A DNA stretch of 64,000 nucleotides from Parvimonas sp. Lineage in GTDB: Bacteria; Bacillota; Clostridia; Tissierellales; Peptoniphilaceae. Position numbers and translations under genes: made by a program. The notes beneath the pieces are model-generated. The model worked only from the letters and a program-made list of their open reading frames with translations. It was not told the DNA's origin and did not search any database. Where the stretch lies: assembly GCF_022770425.1 (NCBI RefSeq), contig NZ_JALEHY010000013.1. The stretch is one strand, 5' to 3'. Positions 4,137 through 10,050 of this stretch are shown piece by piece. How positions within the stretch are numbered: position 1 is the first letter of the stretch; every line of letters starts with the position of its first letter.

Positions 4137-5135
4137 ATGAACAGTTTATGGAAAATTTATCATAATGAAATTCCAACATTCATTATGGAATTTGCAAATA
4201 CAAAGGAAATGAAAAGATTAGATGATGTTGGAATGAATTGTGGTTGTGAATATACTAATTTTGAAAAATTTAAAAATTCTAATTATAAAAAATATTCAAG
4301 ATATGTGCACAGTATTTCAGTTGCACTTATTATTTGGCATTTTACAAATGATATGAAACAGTCTTTATCCGGACTATTTCATGATATTGCAACACCTGTG
4401 TTTGCACATACAATTGATTTTTTAAACGGTGACCACGAAACTCAAGAATCAACAGAAGACAATACAAAAGAAATTATAGAAAATTCAAAAGAAATAACAA
4501 ATTTATTGGAAAAATATAATATATCAGTTGATGAAGTTTGTGACTACCATATGTATCCCATAGCAGATAATGACTCTCCTAAACTTTCAGCGGATAGACT
4601 TGAATATTCACTTGGGAATATGTTAAATTACGGATTTACTACATTTGAAAAAGTAAAAGAATTTTATGACGATTTAACTGTATCTGATAATGAAACAGGT
4701 GAAACGGAATTGGTTTTTAAGACAAAGAGTATAGCAATAGAATTTACAGAAAATGTACTTAAAAATTCTCGTTTGTATGTTTCGGATGAAGATAGGGGAT
4801 CTATGCAAAAATTAGCTAATCTTATAAAATATGCGATTGAAGAGTCGGTAATTAGAAAAGAAGATTTGTACAAAACAGAAAAATTTGTAATTGAAAAGTT
4901 GAAAAAATCAGACAAAACGAATTATCTATGGACAAAGTACAGAAGTTATTCAAAAATTAATATTGTAAAAAATGAGTCTGATTTAACCGATTGTATTAAA
5001 GTCTCAGGAAAAAAGAGGTTTATTAACCCTTTTGTAAAAAATGAAGATAGAGTTTCAAAATTATCCGATAAAATTTTTGATAAAATTGAATTTATTAAAA
5101 ATATGAAATTTGACTATTGGATAAGTTTAAACTAA
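4137..5135 (+). CDS. HD-domain metal-dependent phosphohydrolase
   Basis: H...HD signature (HSISVALII ... GLFHDIATPVFAHTIDF). Confidence 0.75.
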   Translation: MNSLWKIYHNEIPTFIMEFANTKEMKRLDDVGMNCGCEYTNFEKFKNSNYKKYSRYVHSISVALIIWHFTNDMKQSLSGLFHDIATPVFAHTIDFLNGDHETQESTEDNTKEIIENSKEITNLLEKYNISVDEVCDYHMYPIADNDSPKLSADRLEYSLGNMLNYGFTTFEKVKEFYDDLTVSDNETGETELVFKTKSIAIEFTENVLKNSRLYVSDEDRGSMQKLANLIKYAIEESVIRKEDLYKTEKFVIEKLKKSDKTNYLWTKYRSYSKINIVKNESDLTDCIKVSGKKRFINPFVKNEDRVSKLSDKIFDKIEFIKNMKFDYWISLN

Positions 5136-5151: not shown

Positions 5152-5490
5152 TGTACATTTGTAAATGATGTGAAACTAAAAATTATAAAAACTATAAAGT
5201 GTATGTTAGAATTAAGTGAGAATTAGGATTTTAGATAAAAGTCTATGAGATTTATCCATAAGAGATTAAATAGAACCATCAAATCCTTTATTCCAACGCA
5301 TAAGAGAAGCTTTAGAAATTTTATATTTTCTATAAACAAAACTAACAGAATTACTATTTTTGTATGTTTTAAGATTATGGTAACTTGTTTGAAGTAAATA
5401 AGGAATATAACATTGACTGTTCTTAATATTTTCTTGATTTTTTATATAATAGCATTCATAAAAGAGCTTTCCTTAATTTATCATACATTT
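5152..5490 (-). mobile_element. decayed IS481-like transposase remnant, copy A (N-terminal HTH part only, no DDE core)
   Basis: Minus-strand translation reads ...NSVSFVYRKYKISKASLMRWNKGFDGSI*SLMDKSHRLLSKILILT*. This shows the HTH and DKSHR(P) pattern of IS481-type transposase N-termini. About 95% identical to 9517-9590 plus 9732-9851. Confidence 0.6.
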
Positions 5491-5606: not shown

Positions 5607-6728
5607 ATGAAATTTATATATCCTAAAATACGTAATCATATACTAGTTGTTCCATTTGAAAATAAAATTTCTATAGGTAATACATTGCAATCGACTATTG
5701 AAGTAAAAGAAAATTCAGGTGTAATTAGAGAAATTTTATTTTTGTGTGATGGAACTCGAACAACAAAAGAAATTTTTTATATTGTTTTTAAAAAAGGATT
5801 TGATATTGAATAAAAAGATGTTAGTGATATTATAGATCAAATTTCTGAATATCCATATATTTTTGAAGATGGAAATGATAAAATTTTATATATTGATAAT
5901 AATCTTTTAGAAAGATATAGTAGAAATTTAAATTTTTTATCTAATTTTGATAAAAAAGGAAATAAAAAATATGATTATATAGATAAAATAATAAATTCAT
6001 GTGTTTTAGTATTAGGACTAGGAGGAGTTGGTTCTCCATTAATATATGATTTAGCTGCTTTAGGAGTTGGAAAAATTATTGCTGTTGATTTTGACTTTGT
6101 GGATATTAGTAATTTAAATAGACAAATACTATATAAAGAAAAACATGTTGGAAAAAAGAAAGTTTACTCAGCAAAAGAAACAATTAATGAATTTAATTCT
6201 AATATTGAGTTTATAGCAATTGACAAAAAAATAGACTCGTCTTTAGATGTATTGGATATTTTGGAACAATTCAAACCGGATTGTGTTATTTGTGTAGCAG
6301 ATAAACCACCAATAAAAATTTACAAATGGGTTAATGAAGCTTGTTTTATGAAGAGTATACCTTTTTTATACGGCGGGAATAGTGAGACAACGGCGTATTA
6401 TCATACTGTTATACCTAATATTTCATCTTGTTTTTTGTGCTATGAGAAAAAATTAGAAGAAAATAAAAATAAAGATGGTTATAATAAATATTTATCTATA
6501 TTAAACAATTCTTATTCTACTGAAAATAATTGTACGGCAGCATCATCATCAACTTTAGCTGCATTTATGGCGTTTGATATAGTAAGACTTATTACAGGAG
6601 CTGAAGTTCCATTGTCATTAAATAAGAGGATTCTTATTGATTATAAAACTAATATAATAGATGAAGAGTATGTTGAAAAACAGGATAATTGTGATTTGTG
6701 CTCAAATAATAATTATGATAGGAGGTGA
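5607..6728 (+). pseudogene. PqqD-like RRE domain fused to a ThiF/MoeB/E1-family adenylyltransferase; single frame interrupted by in-frame TAA at 5811-5813
   Basis: ORFs 5607-5813 and 6099-6728 share one frame, and 5814-6098 is open in that frame. N-terminus: ...VIREILFLCDGTRTTKEIFYIVFKKGFDIE*KDVSDIIDQISEYPYIFE (RRE-like). Core: RYSRNLNFL, nucleotide loop VLVLGLGGVGS, DFDFVDISNLNRQ, two CxxC pairs (CFLC, CDLC). There is no in-frame start between the stop and the Gly loop. Confidence 0.65.
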
Positions 6729-6732
6729 ATTT

Positions 6733-6816
6733 ATGAAAATAGTTATTAAACCAATTGATAATGTAGAATTGACTAAAAGAGGAGGTAGAGGAACAGCTGG
6801 AGAGTCAAGATATTAA
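6733..6816 (+). CDS. candidate precursor peptide, 27 aa (not in ORF track)
   Basis: GGAGG at 6721-6725, 7 nt before ATG 6733. MKIVIKPIDNVELTKRGGRGTAGESRY, stop TAA at 6814-6816. It lies between the two RRE-fusion genes. Confidence 0.5.
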   Translation: MKIVIKPIDNVELTKRGGRGTAGESRY

Positions 6817-6822
6817 AAATTT

Positions 6823-7962
6823 ATGAAATATATAATTAATTATGATATAATCACAATGCAAAATTTTGGTGGAAATTATATTATTAAAAATATATTAAAT
6901 GGGAAATCTCTATAAATTAATGAAGATGTATTAGATATCCTTAATTTTATGAAAAATCCATTTTTTATTGAAGAATGCATAAGTAGATTTAACTTAAAAA
7001 ATGAAGAAATGAATTTTATTATTGATGAATTATTAAGAACAGGAATGTTATCTGAATGTGAAAATAATTATATAGATGAAAAATTTTCAAAAACAGATTT
7101 TTCTTTTTTTGATTCTCAAAATATATATAAAGATAATTCTATTTGTATTCTTGGGGTACCTTATGATGGAGGAACTACAGGCGTTTCTGGATGCAAAATT
7201 GCTCCAAATACTTTAAAAAAATTTACTTCAAATTATTCTTATTTATATAATAGAATAGATAAAAAATTTTTTATCTCATACCCTAATATTGATTGTTATA
7301 ATAATCAAAATATTGTTGATCTAGGAAATATTTTAACGATTGCCGGTGAATCGTCATATGATTTACACAATAGACTTGAAATAGCATATAAAAACCATAT
7401 AAAAAATAAAGATAATAAGATAATTGTAGTTGGAGGCGATCATTCAATAACATATCCTATATTAAATTCGTTTGAAGAAGATATTATTTTTTTAAAGTTT
7501 GATGCACATTATGATGATAATTTGATATTAAACAATATTGTAAATCATTCAAATTTTATTAGAAAAATAGAAAATATAAAAAACATAAAAGAGATATATC
7601 ATATTGGAATAAGAGAACCTAGAAAGCCTGGATTAAATATAAATGGAAAAGCAATTACTTCTGATGATATTAGAAATAATAATGCAGAATTAATTTTTGA
7701 AGAATATTTATTGAATAATGCAAATTTTTATATATCTATAGATGTTGATGTTTTTGATCCATTAATTGTTCCGGCAACGGGATATACTTTACCATATGGT
7801 ATAAATTTAGGACAAATATGTAATTTAATAGATTATTTTAATAGAATAGGGAATATAATAGGAGTTGATATAGTTGAATATAATCCATTATTAGATAAGA
7901 ATGATATAACCATGTATACAGTAATGGATTTGTTAAAATATTTAATAAATATATTAACTTAA
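6823..7962 (+). pseudogene. RRE-like N-terminal domain fused to an arginase/agmatinase (ureohydrolase)-family enzyme; in-frame TAA at 6913-6915 (intact ORF 6949-7962)
   Basis: ATG 6823 and ORF 6949-7962 share a frame. N-terminus: MKYIINYDIITMQNFGGNYIIKNILNGKSL*INEDVLDILNFMKNPFFIEECISRFNLKNEEMNFIIDELLRTGMLSE. Ureohydrolase metal motifs are intact: GGDHSITYP, FDAHYDD, SIDVDVFDP. Confidence 0.65.
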
Positions 7963-7981: not shown

Positions 7982-8518
7982 ATGAAAGCACTTTTGGTTC
8001 TTGATTTACAAAAGGGAATAATAAGTCAAAAAAATTTTGATAATACATTGGCTAATATAAAAATATTAATAGACGACTTTAAAAAAAATAATGATATAGT
8101 AATATTAACTAAGCATATATCTAAGTTTGAAGAAAATCCACTATACATTCATGGTAAAGGGGTTGAAATTGAAGATGATTTTGTGAAATTAGCAGATTAT
8201 GTAATAGAAAAAGATAGTTGTAATCCATTTTTAAATACAGATTTGTATAATATTTTATTAAAAAACAATATAACTGATATATACATATGTGGATTTAATA
8301 CAGAATATTGTTGTCTTTTTTCTAGTATAATATCTACTGATAGAGGTTTTAAAACTGTATTTATAGAAGATGCTACAGACACAATTGGAGATGAAGATAT
8401 ATACGAGATGCCAGGATTGGATATTAGAGATTTTATAGGGTCAATTTTAAATTGGTCAGAGTTAGTTGAAGTTTTATATGTATATGAGTACTTAGAATTA
8501 AGAGATTGTAATGAATAA
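7982..8518 (+). CDS. isochorismatase-family cysteine hydrolase
   Basis: AGGAGG RBS. Asp-Lys-Cys triad context: ALLVLDLQKG, ILTKH, YICGFNTEYCC. Confidence 0.8.
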   Translation: MKALLVLDLQKGIISQKNFDNTLANIKILIDDFKKNNDIVILTKHISKFEENPLYIHGKGVEIEDDFVKLADYVIEKDSCNPFLNTDLYNILLKNNITDIYICGFNTEYCCLFSSIISTDRGFKTVFIEDATDTIGDEDIYEMPGLDIRDFIGSILNWSELVEVLYVYEYLELRDCNE

Positions 8519-8732
8519 TTTAGATTTTTAAAATCAGAAATATGATTTAAATGAATATTCAAAAGTATTGTTTTTTAATGATGTTGTTATTATTGATGAA
8601 GAAGATTCAGGGAATATATTTAGGTAGAACAGAAATTAATAAATACATATTAATTCCTAGAATAGGATTAGATATCGTATAATATCAAATTTAATATTTA
8701 ACAAATTTACAGGATTAATTTTTAGTTGTTTT

Positions 8733-9284
8733 TTGATGCTTACATTTTTTATTGGTTTATTTTTATTTAGATATAAATTTATGCCATCTTATTTTGAATA
8801 TTTTTGGCATGATTCACTTATTGTTGTACTTTTAATTTCTCCTATATTTGATTTTATAACTGGAATAACACATGAATTTTTTCATTTTTTAGCTAGTAGT
8901 AAATTTACCTATACATCATCATATTTTTCTATTGGAAGAAGGCTATTAAATGTAGTTTATCAAACAAGGATAAATAATATTTGGTTAATACCAAGAAAAA
9001 GTAGATATTTGATATATTTTTCAGGGATAATTTTAGATTTATTTATTATATGGATTACATTTTATGTTAAATATAATAGTATTATATACAGATTTTCTAG
9101 ATTTGCAATTTTATATTTAGAATTTGGAATAATATTCCAATTTAAATTTTATATGAAGACAGACATTTATTTTTTTATTAGTGATTTTTTAGGTAATCCA
9201 TCATTATATGAAGATTCTATGTCTTTTTTAAAACATATATTTAAAATTGAAAAAAATAAAAATGAATTACTATTATATATTTGA
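8733..9284 (+). CDS. polytopic membrane protein with HExxH motif (M50/site-2-protease-like or DUF3267-like putative zinc peptidase)
   Basis: GITHEFFHFLASS adjoins a hydrophobic segment, and there are several further predicted TM segments. The true 5' end is uncertain: an ATG at 8511 overlaps the upstream stop, but 8511-8732 is broken by stops. Confidence 0.55.
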   Translation: MMLTFFIGLFLFRYKFMPSYFEYFWHDSLIVVLLISPIFDFITGITHEFFHFLASSKFTYTSSYFSIGRRLLNVVYQTRINNIWLIPRKSRYLIYFSGIILDLFIIWITFYVKYNSIIYRFSRFAILYLEFGIIFQFKFYMKTDIYFFISDFLGNPSLYEDSMSFLKHIFKIEKNKNELLLYI

Positions 9285-9481
9285 TATTTATATTGTTGGC
9301 TAGTATAATAGATATGTTGTTTAGTTTGTATTATTTGATTCCGTCATTTAGATATATTTTTGCCAATATCACTGCTGGCGGTGATTTTAAAATTTATGGA
9401 ATCATAACATTATTTTTTTCTTTTATATATTATGGATTTGTATTATATGTTTTTTTAAAAGAAAAAACTAATAAGTTTTAG
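9281..9481 (+). CDS. small 2-TM membrane protein (possibly a frameshifted 3' part of the preceding gene)
   Basis: Hydrophobic 66-aa ORF with a TTG start overlapping the upstream TGA (TTGA). No clear RBS. Confidence 0.3.
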   Translation: MIFILLASIIDMLFSLYYLIPSFRYIFANITAGGDFKIYGIITLFFSFIYYGFVLYVFLKEKTNKF

Positions 9482-9516: not shown

Positions 9517-10050
9517 TGTACATTTGTAAATGATGTGAAACTAAAAATTATAAAAACTATAAAGTGTATGTTAGAATTAAGTGAGAATTAATTTTCATTA
9601 TGAAGATTGTTCCTTAAAAGGATAAATAAATCTTTCACGAGCTGCTTCAATCAAAGAAACGTTAGGATTTCTTCTAATGAGATTTTTAATCCAAAAAATT
9701 TAGGTATCAGTATGAGAATTAGTGAGAATTAGGATTTTAGATAAAGGTCTATGAGATTTATCCATAAGAGATTAAATAGAACCATCAAATATTTTATTCC
9801 AACGCATAAGAGAAGCTTTAGAAATTTTATATTTTCTACAAACAAAACTAACAGAATTACCATTTCTGTTAGTTTTAACGGTATAGTATTGAGAACAAAT
9901 GAGTAATATATCGTTGGTTGAGTTTTATATTTGTTTGATTTAGTGGTATAATATTATTCATAAGAGAGTTCCTTTATAATTAATTTGTTTGTTGTTTTAA
10001 TTATATAGGATATTCTCTTTTTTTGTACATTTGGTCTCACATCAATTGTA
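9517..10050 (-). mobile_element. decayed IS481-like element remnant, copy B (HTH plus adjoining region, at least 2 in-frame stops, DDE core missing)
   Basis: Minus-strand translation reads ...RKYKISKASLMRWNKIFDGSI*SLMDKSHRPLSKILILTNSHTDT*IFWIKNLIRRNPNVSLIEAARERFIYPFKEQSS*. Imperfect terminal inverted repeat between 9525-9541 and 10034-10050 (13/17). Confidence 0.6.

Follow-up and report, generated by a model that had tools for sequence, protein, structure and literature searches.

A probable RiPP precursor gene of a conserved ThiF-like and arginase-family enzyme cassette, retained as a relic in a Parvimonas genome

Introduction

Is a very small open reading frame (ORF) lying between two enzyme genes of a Parvimonas genome a gene, and if so what is its product for? 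The ORF is found in a 64,000-nucleotide stretch of contig NZ_JALEHY010000013.1 of Parvimonas sp. (assembly GCF_022770425.1); this whole stretch is called the window below. It follows a gene for a ThiF-like enzyme and precedes a gene for an arginase-like enzyme. Sequence comparison, structure models and analogy with characterised enzymes together suggest that it is probably the precursor gene of a peptide made on the ribosome and modified after translation (RiPP), and that it belongs to a conserved cassette whose other members encode ThiF-like, arginase-family and isochorismatase-like enzymes and an HExxH protease.

ThiF-like RiPP enzymes are a small and fast-growing field, and peptide arginases are sought for the installation of ornithine; the cassette combines both. 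ThiF-like RiPP enzymes are known to form phosphoramidate, indolizidinone, thiolactone, cyclic imide and indolylamide structures. The cassette is present in hosts of medical or industrial relevance, including Streptococcus pseudopneumoniae, S. intermedius, S. suis, Heyndrickxia coagulans, the Bacillus cereus group and oral Parvimonas.

The peptide gene and its relatives

The ORF has 27 codons, from an ATG at 6733 to a TAA at 6814-6816 on the plus strand, and its arginine residues are at positions 16, 19 and 26. A GGAGG 7 nt upstream of the ATG is its Shine-Dalgarno sequence. The TGA stop codon of the ThiF-like gene is at 6726-6728, leaving a gap of 4 nt before the peptide gene, and a second gap of 6 nt separates the peptide stop codon from the arginase-like ATG at 6823. 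The ends of the ORF, its Shine-Dalgarno sequence, the spacings and the arginine positions had been given in an initial annotation of the window and all hold. The same annotation called the ORF unannotated, which is true of the NCBI records of this metagenome-assembled genome (MAG); other gene callers report the peptide within products of 33-51 amino acids (aa) that begin at upstream start codons. The elements concerned are the following.

6721..6725, plus strand: Shine-Dalgarno GGAGG, seen in the sequence, with a counterpart in every related locus
6733..6816, plus strand: probable precursor peptide gene, 27 aa, MKIVIKPIDNVELTKRGGRGTAGESRY, identified by its conserved position, codon-level selection and tandem copies in locus L021

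The simplest alternative is that the ORF arose by chance and has no biological meaning. The window has a GC content of 28.8 %, and across its six frames there are 359 ORFs with a length of 27 aa or more. By length alone a 27-aa ORF is not beyond chance in such an AT-rich window, but its conservation is far beyond chance. It is also the sole ORF of 20-60 aa in the window with a GGAGG 5-10 nt upstream. Conservation, synteny, codon-level selection and Shine-Dalgarno sites across at least 12 taxa already refute the chance explanation, to which we attach a negligible probability.

To examine the gene neighbourhood, homologues that span the whole arginase-like protein, about 365-395 aa long, were traced to their contigs. 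The order of genes in the traced contigs is ThiF-like, a short gap, arginase-like, isochorismatase-like and a membrane protein of 383-409 aa. In all related loci examined that hold the junction, the gap contains a small ORF of the same family, encoding a peptide of 25-34 aa; on shorter contigs the small ORF lies directly downstream of the ThiF-like gene. The initial annotation had proposed that the ORF encodes a precursor connected with the enzymes on either side, and the presence of a conserved ORF in every related cassette examined bears this out. It had also suggested looking for conserved Gly-Gly and Arg positions beside homologues of those enzymes; the small ORF is indeed kept there, with G17-G18, R16 and R19 invariant.

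The peptide and cassette occur in Parvimonas, Lagierella, Cytobacillus, Heyndrickxia, Paenibacillus, the B. cereus group, Alkalibacterium and at least five species of Streptococcus. The peptides are as follows.

This window (Parvimonas): MKIVIKPIDNVELTKRGGRGTAGESRY
Metagenome contigs: MEIVIKKVDKVELTKRGGRGGSGESRM
Lagierella: MKIEIKEVDKVELTKRGGRGGSGESRM
Cytobacillus and Heyndrickxia coagulans: MKITIKVLNDVELTKRGGRNTLNPES
Alkalibacterium: MVIQVKVLDEVELTKRGGRNTINPES
Paenibacillus: MKIEIIELTEVELTKRGGRNVLGES
B. cereus group: MKIEVVKLSEVELTKRGGRNIVNQES
Streptococcus suis, himalayensis, cuniculipharyngis, pseudopneumoniae and intermedius: ...KKIEIKVLD[ST]VELTKRGGRNT[IV]NPES

The core V-E-L-T-K-R-G-G-R is identical in the peptide of every locus, with a change of Thr to Ile in one cluster. 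A Glu-Ser pair near the C-terminus is also invariant; in Bacilli the peptide ends with it, and in the Parvimonas/Lagierella type R[YM] follows. Between R19 and this Glu there is a variable part of 4-5 residues, which ends in Gly, Asn-Pro or Asn-Gln. The C-terminal residue is Ser, Tyr or Met in all 17 distinct peptides. From these features we propose a layout with a leader strand at residues 2-13, the invariant VELTKRGGR at 11-19 and an invariant E24-S25. No family in Pfam or NCBIfam was matched when the 27-aa peptide was scanned against them.

The peptide gene is identical across all Parvimonas assemblies seen. Within the VELTKRGGR codons, comparison of all pairs of loci gave 0 non-synonymous differences against up to 9 synonymous differences in 9 codons (for example L001 against L014). 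As judged from these codons, purifying selection acts on the amino-acid sequence of the peptide. Upstream of the peptide ATG every related locus carries a strong Shine-Dalgarno sequence (AGGAGG, GGAGG or GGGGG) at a distance of 6-9 nt. In Bacillus cereus group sp. Bce018 (locus L021, 4393-4937) there are four identical tandem precursor genes encoding MKIEVVKLSEVELTKRGGRNIVNQES, each with its own AGGAGG. A strong hairpin, either GC-rich or long, and a run of U lie directly downstream of the peptide gene in every copy except that of the window. The hairpin sites are as follows.

L001: 3137-3196
L004: 1419-1481
L005: 5927-6001
L006: 5929-6001
L008: 1917-2008
L009: 5873-6001
L015: hairpin present
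L020: 7192-7264

Hairpins followed by a U-run are common downstream of bacteriocin and RiPP structural genes. Here they may act as a leaky terminator that sets the ratio of precursor to enzymes. Because of the selection at codon level, the Shine-Dalgarno sequence at every copy, the downstream hairpins and the four tandem copies, we regard the ORF as a real gene.

The hairpins are also relevant to an explanation in which the ORF is a regulatory leader, whose Arg codons sense arginyl-tRNA and attenuate the arginase gene while the peptide itself has no function. Three Arg codons directly upstream of an arginase-family gene, with terminator-like hairpins after the ORF in related loci, are what such an attenuator would have. 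However, Arg is encoded by AGA in some lineages and by CGT, CGC or CGA in others, and residues other than Arg are equally invariant. Four tandem copies would be senseless for an attenuator, three of the enzymes carry domains for peptide recognition (see below), and in the window there is no hairpin after the ORF but only the 6-nt gap to the arginase ATG. This explanation is therefore very improbable.

The family was also sought by motif and by profile. A DNA motif scan of 185,579 species-representative genomes gave six matches, five of them true, and the enzymes are present at all five. The sixth, in Clostridium thermobutyricum (L012), has neither the enzymes nor a short ORF and is a chance match. 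The corresponding scan of metagenomes gave 30 matches, only three of which are short ORFs of the family, all with the enzymes; the other 27 lack both enzymes and short ORF and are likewise due to chance. A protein database search used as query the peptide alignment headed by a 40-aa ORF from L021. The S. pseudopneumoniae peptide is present on 331 contigs. The stretch (E)LTKRGGRN also turned up, at E values of about 0.4-0.6, in two small and unrelated-looking proteins, P0251 (49 aa) and P0250 (58 aa), which are probably chance matches.

In L021 the gene order of the cassette is altered, to ThiF, four copies of the peptide, arginase, membrane protein and isochorismatase. S. pseudopneumoniae and H. 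coagulans (CP151954, 2.886-2.899 Mb) have intact cassettes.

Enzymes of the cassette

The genes around the peptide gene in the window are the following.

5607..6728, plus strand: gene for a ThiF-like adenylating enzyme of the MccB/PaaA type with a RiPP recognition element (RRE) at its N-terminus, a pseudogene here; assigned from Pfam, PDB profile and fold
6823..7962, plus strand: arginase/agmatinase-family (PF00491) gene with an N-terminal RRE-like domain, a pseudogene here; assigned from Pfam, motifs and an AlphaFold2 model
7982..8518, plus strand: isochorismatase-like cysteine hydrolase gene, intact, without RRE; Pfam Isochorismatase 5e-22
8559..9481, plus strand: gene for a predicted RRE-fused HExxH polytopic membrane metalloprotease, a remnant, with HEFFH at 8871-8885

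The ThiF-like protein matches Pfam ThiF at 1.2e-45 over residues 104-362, and about 100 residues precede this domain. Against the PDB, the profile of the family matches MccB at 4e-42 and PaaA at 2e-37 with the N-terminus included, ahead of ubiquitin-type E1s, MoeB and ThiF. The AlphaFold2 model of the intact homologue P0121 (predicted local distance difference test score, pLDDT, 93.5) has a template modelling (TM) score of 0.75-0.77 to full-length MccB over about 363 columns, with PaaA next. The ATP loop, the Mg residues, the catalytic Arg, Asp and Lys residues and the CxxC pairs are conserved: G136/G138/G139/G141, D162, N168, R171, Q172, K184 and D231 are invariant in the family, and N170, C274, C277 and C361 nearly so. 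PqqD, the Pfam family with the RRE fold, is matched in 17 of 48 ThiF-like relatives, and in fold the N-terminal part agrees with the peptide clamp of MccB. On these profiles and models, the enzyme belongs to the peptide-modifying clade of MccB and PaaA and not to the carrier-activating clade of ThiF and MoeB.

More distant RRE-ThiF relatives, of about 30 % identity, lie outside the family; they occur in different contexts and have no such peptide beside them. In L017 one is found beside a major facilitator superfamily (MFS) protein. In L018 (3954-9329) and L019 (2421-7796) an M3 peptidase, an RRE-ThiF of about 30 % identity, a phosphoenolpyruvate mutase-family protein and an MFS protein are encoded together on contigs that bear an integrase or resolvase, and this set looks like another uncharacterised ThiF-type cluster.

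The arginase-like protein matches Pfam Arginase at 9e-46 over residues 106-373. The motifs that supply the ligands of the binuclear Mn centre (GGDHS, DAHxD and DxDxxD) are invariant in 26 sequences. In the PDB its closest resemblance is to agmatinases, but the equivalog cut-offs of NCBIfam are not reached, and it is therefore neither an agmatinase nor an arginase in the strict sense. PF00491 is the only family matched; PF12640, the family of the OspR-type enzymes, is not among the Pfam matches of the protein. In the AlphaFold2 model (pLDDT 87) the N-terminal domain of about 100 residues has the order beta-beta-beta-alpha-alpha-alpha. The fragment encoded in the window is 100 % identical to MCI5996938.1.

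An arginase with the same kind of N-terminal domain is also found in Sutcliffiella cohnii (L022, 501-8832), in another RiPP-like cluster with YcaO, arginase, MFS, DUF2087, a LanB-type dehydratase and an M3 peptidase; a 30-aa ORF, MKKELKVEIKKSVKKNPVPKQSKNRYTVAN, precedes the arginase there. RRE-fused arginases may, from this second occurrence, be a recurring tailoring module.

The isochorismatase-like gene is found in every cassette, and the triad Asp8, Lys77 and Cys110 is invariant in ten cassette homologues of its product. The membrane protein has a weak match to Peptidase_M50. In NCBIfam it matches two families of RiPP maturation protease and no others, the daptide intramembrane metalloprotease at 4.5e-5 and YydH/LiaK at 4.8e-4; both scores are far under the family cut-offs (22.8 against 300 bits and 19.9 against 225).

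The N-terminal domains of three of these enzymes resemble each other. In hhalign comparisons the domain of the arginase matches that of the ThiF-like protein (90.9 %, E 1e-6) and that of the membrane protein (95.7 %, E 9e-9), and the membrane protein matches the ThiF-like protein (90.1 %). Profile-profile matches and predicted topology thus mark the N-terminal domain of the arginase as RRE-like. Homologous domains for peptide recognition on three of the four enzymes suggest that the peptide is their common substrate, and this is the strongest single argument for the precursor reading.

Proposed pathway

We propose that the leader consists of the amphipathic N-terminal strand and the invariant VELTK, and that, as knowledge of such families suggests, it docks on the RREs. 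The Mn-dependent arginase-family enzyme would then hydrolyse the guanidino group of invariant R19 and/or R16. The precedent is KgrD of the enteropeptin pathway, an arginase of PF00491 whose substrate is the enteropeptin precursor (PMC12703449), and on this analogy there is a good chance that one or both residues are converted to ornithine. All three arginines had been put forward as possible arginase substrates in the initial annotation. This is plausible for the invariant R16 and R19, but R26 is present only in the tail of the Parvimonas/Lagierella type, the Bacilli peptides ending in ES.

The MccB/PaaA-type ThiF enzyme very likely adenylates a carboxylate of the peptide, by analogy with its closest relatives. 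This would most likely be the side chain of the invariant Glu of ES. The side chain is favoured because Glu is invariant while the C-terminus varies between Ser, Tyr and Met, because additional residues after Glu are tolerated, and because there is a precedent in the ThiF-like enzymes PaaA and GrcB, which activate the side chain of a Glu by adenylation (PMC12596934). Adenylation followed by displacement of AMP by an internal nucleophile is shared by MccB, PaaA, GrcB, EnfB and IndF (PMC12596934, PMC12150305). In the cassette the delta-amine of ornithine could capture the acyl-adenylate, which would give an isopeptide macrolactam of 6-7 residues; ornithine is favoured as nucleophile because the arginase thereby gains a purpose. 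A turn-forming Gly or Asn-Pro before Glu would suit such a ring closure. This assignment of the adenylation site and of the nucleophile is tentative, and a lactam between ornithine and Glu should be read as one candidate structure.

The RRE-fused intramembrane HExxH protease would then cut off the leader, perhaps during export. The isochorismatase-like cysteine hydrolase has no RRE and should therefore act on leaderless species, either in final tailoring or in self-protection and immunity.

Several points weigh against the precursor reading and this pathway. Which residues are modified, what the nucleophile is, where the leader ends and the core begins, and what the isochorismatase-like enzyme does have all been inferred. 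Pfam PqqD is not matched directly by the N-terminal domain of the arginase, the spacing from R19 to Glu varies between 5 and 6 residues, and the cassette contains no dedicated ATP-binding cassette (ABC) or MFS exporter. The enzymes in the window are broken, so almost certainly no product is made here. Finally, conservation is strongest in the centre of the peptide, at VELTKRGGR, and not at the N-terminus, which could make this centre, as in pantocin A, the site of chemistry in place of the tail.

The last point leads to a different route, in which the invariant K-R-G-G-R, with E12, is the site of chemistry. The ThiF-like enzyme would adenylate E12 or a Gly carboxylate exposed by cleavage, and leader and follower would be discarded to leave a small product derived from ornithine or arginine. 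E12 and K15 are invariant, and it is the central part, above the tail, that is most conserved. Of the two closest solved structures one is PaaA, an enzyme that acts on residues midway along PaaP and accepts a follower. A discarded follower would, however, have no need of the invariant Glu-Ser and the turn residue before it, which are present in all 17 distinct peptides, and the cassette contains no oxygenase or decarboxylase of the pantocin type. We consider this route unlikely.

The Gly-Gly pair itself could be the functional junction. G17-G18 is invariant and is followed by an invariant Arg, and a protease gene is part of the cassette. The initial annotation had pointed out a resemblance to double-glycine leaders, for which cleavage after G18 would release a tail of 7-9 aa. 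The consensus of such leaders is LSxxELxxIxGG, with Glu at -8 and Leu at -7. In VELTKRGG these two residues are at -7 and -6, and position -4 is Lys and not hydrophobic. The peptide is thus one residue out of register, and no locus contains a C39 peptidase or an ABC exporter of the kind that serves these leaders, so the resemblance does not extend to a double-glycine system. Cleavage at this site is compatible with the precursor reading as the site of leader removal, and it is possible that the cassette protease cuts after GG as a detail of that step.

In its other form the Gly-Gly explanation takes an exposed KRGG C-terminus to be adenylated as in ubiquitin, ThiS or MoaD, which was the second suggestion of the annotation. 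E1-type enzymes classically take C-termini ending in GG. The peptides never end in GG, the pair always being followed by Arg and 6-8 further residues, and 18 residues are too few for a beta-grasp carrier: the whole peptides have 25-34 aa as against about 65-100 aa for the beta-grasp fold. There is no rhodanese, sulfurtransferase, E2 or JAMM partner in the cassette, and the enzyme clusters with MccB and PaaA and not with ThiF and MoeB. The carrier idea in this form has to be given up on these grounds, and taken as a whole an explanation from the Gly-Gly junction is quite improbable.

Comparison with known systems

The precursor reading can be compared with characterised pathways. Microcin C of Escherichia coli (MccA and MccB) is similar in that an N-terminal peptide clamp or RRE is joined to an E1-like adenylation domain and the peptide gene adjoins the enzyme gene. 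MccA, however, has 7 aa and must end in Asn, giving a peptidyl-adenylate product, whereas the cassette peptides have 25-34 aa and never end in Asn. In place of MccC/D/E/F the cassette has an arginase, a cysteine hydrolase and a membrane protease.

In pantocin A (PaaP and PaaA) and in the GrcA/GrcB thiolactone, ThiF-like RRE fusions adenylate a Glu within or near the C-terminus of a precursor of about 30-40 aa, and an intramolecular nucleophile closes the ring (PMC12596934). None of the cassette peptides has the central Glu-Glu-Asn (EEN) motif of the pantocin A precursor, and none has a C-terminal Cys. In the reviews covered, an ornithine made in situ has no precedent as nucleophile among ThiF-like RiPP enzymes; 'lactam', 'ornithine' and 'isopeptide' each have 0 occurrences there.

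KgrD, from enteropeptin clusters of Enterococcus and Streptococcus, is likewise a Mn-dependent PF00491 enzyme that converts a peptide Arg to ornithine in a Firmicute RiPP (PMC12703449), the comparison being by description. It belongs to a radical-SAM sactipeptide pathway and acts on a thiomorpholine-modified Arg, whereas the cassette arginase has a ThiF-like enzyme as partner and carries an RRE-like domain. The OspR-type peptide arginases (landornamide, FlmR, OhkR, PbsE) resemble it in the reaction proposed, peptidyl-Arg to peptidyl-ornithine and urea. They belong to PF12640 and not to PF00491, their precursors are of the NHLP, Nif11, SCIFF or DD(I/V)LF types, and no fused RRE has been reported for them. 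The motifs of PF12640 are DXHXD and EEH(N/H)EAF as well as LDIDLDYFSC (PMC12703449).

The ThiF-like RiPP families of lactic acid bacteria (WWIII/EnfB, NWYFI/IndF, VEGR, NICxxxK, CxxxC and GxxQY) are similar in the kind of cluster and in a host range of Streptococcus and other Bacillota, and close to such clusters there are often regulators of the RRNPP/Rgg type and fragments of transposases (PMC11256085, PMC12445099). None of the six precursor types matches VELTKRGGR...ES. In the searchable literature no mention was found of an arginase or isochorismatase partner of these families. The membrane protein resembles the daptide and YydH/LiaK proteases, to which its matches are weak, in having an HExxH in a polytopic membrane domain, but it has an additional N-terminal RRE-like domain.

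No description of a ThiF, arginase and isochorismatase cluster or of the peptide motif was found in the searchable literature, which does not cover subscription-only papers. The cassette is apparently an undescribed and uncharacterised RiPP family that puts known enzyme superfamilies in a new combination. It is conceivable, although we would at present sooner doubt it, that the VELTKRGGR...ES peptides form a new RiPP class in which an RRE-fused PF00491 arginase makes ornithine, an MccB-like ThiF enzyme ligates the delta-amine to an adenylated Glu or C-terminal carboxylate, and three RRE-bearing enzymes guide the process. If true, this would be a ribosomal ornithine-isopeptide macrolactam, and no reaction of that type has yet been described for an enzyme of the ThiF-like kind. 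The cassette adds an unusual design with three RREs and an unexplained cysteine hydrolase. Four genes and a 26-aa peptide make a compact and testable system for a new peptide macrocyclisation, possibly yielding a new signalling or antimicrobial peptide.

In streptococci a regulator gene and a small ORF precede the cassette (L009, 3105-3974 and 4131-4268; also L008, 67-204, L011, L014 and L047). The regulator is a conserved 290-aa XRE helix-turn-helix (HTH) protein with a weakly tetratricopeptide repeat-like C-terminus. The product of the ORF, of about 45 aa, begins with a signal-like stretch and carries a conserved (E/G)IDPGPAN motif at its C-terminus. These may be a regulator and pheromone pair of the RRNPP type that controls the cassette. 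If the new class is real, such wiring would point to a part in signalling or antagonism in host-associated Firmicutes.

Decay of the cassette in this genome

Both genes that flank the peptide gene are interrupted in the window. An in-frame TAA at 5811-5813 lies inside the RRE of the ThiF-like gene, and another at 6913-6915 lies inside the RRE-like domain of the arginase-like gene. Each replaces a GAA (Glu) codon of intact Parvimonas alleles (P0261 and P0262 for ThiF, P0256 for the arginase), which encode a 373-aa ThiF-like and a 368-aa arginase-like protein in other Parvimonas-like assemblies. The flanking enzymes had been described as in need of repair, and one in-frame TAA in each gene agrees with this. 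When intact homologues of 383-409 aa were compared by tblastn with the protease remnant, they matched in four pieces in frames 3/1/3/2, with two frameshifts, and residues of about 58-120 were missing, which are some 63 codons of the RRE-like domain. The peptide gene and the isochorismatase-like gene are the only intact cassette genes of the window.

Recoding or read-through of the two TAA codons was considered and rejected: both stand where intact alleles have GAA, a third gene is damaged as well, by frameshifts and a deletion, and the peptide ORF itself terminates with TAA. Because of the two GAA to TAA nonsense codons and the frameshifted, partly deleted protease gene, the pathway is, as read from the sequence, almost certainly dead in this Parvimonas genome, and the peptide ORF is the relic of a cassette of which other Parvimonas assemblies keep intact copies. 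For annotation the case is instructive, a conserved gene having been overlooked in the NCBI annotation of the MAG while its local copy is a decaying relic. Differently truncated versions of the enzymes are found in other NCBI MAGs.

The cassette has a GC content of 22 %, against 28.8 % for the window, and is flanked by a direct repeat.

5152..5382, no strand assigned: left repeat copy, a 5' fragment of an insertion sequence (IS) transposase gene read on the minus strand; found by repeat search
9517..9888, no strand assigned: right repeat copy, a 5' fragment of an IS transposase gene, with an insertion of about 130 nt relative to the left copy; found by repeat search

The two copies share 74 nt at 100 % and 168 nt at 93 % identity. 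Translation of the repeat on the minus strand gives an HTH-like '...YRKYKISKASLMRWNKGFDGSI*SLMDKSHR...', the N-terminal part of a transposase broken by a stop codon. The flanking repeats and the low GC content suggest a mobile or acquired island. A gene for an HD-domain protein (4137-5135) lies just upstream of the left IS fragment and is outside the cassette in all other loci.

In Clostridium tepidiprofundi (L010, 1923-5141) an N-terminally truncated arginase-like gene and an isochorismatase-like gene are all that is left, by an IS110 transposase, and this locus is another decayed copy of the cassette.

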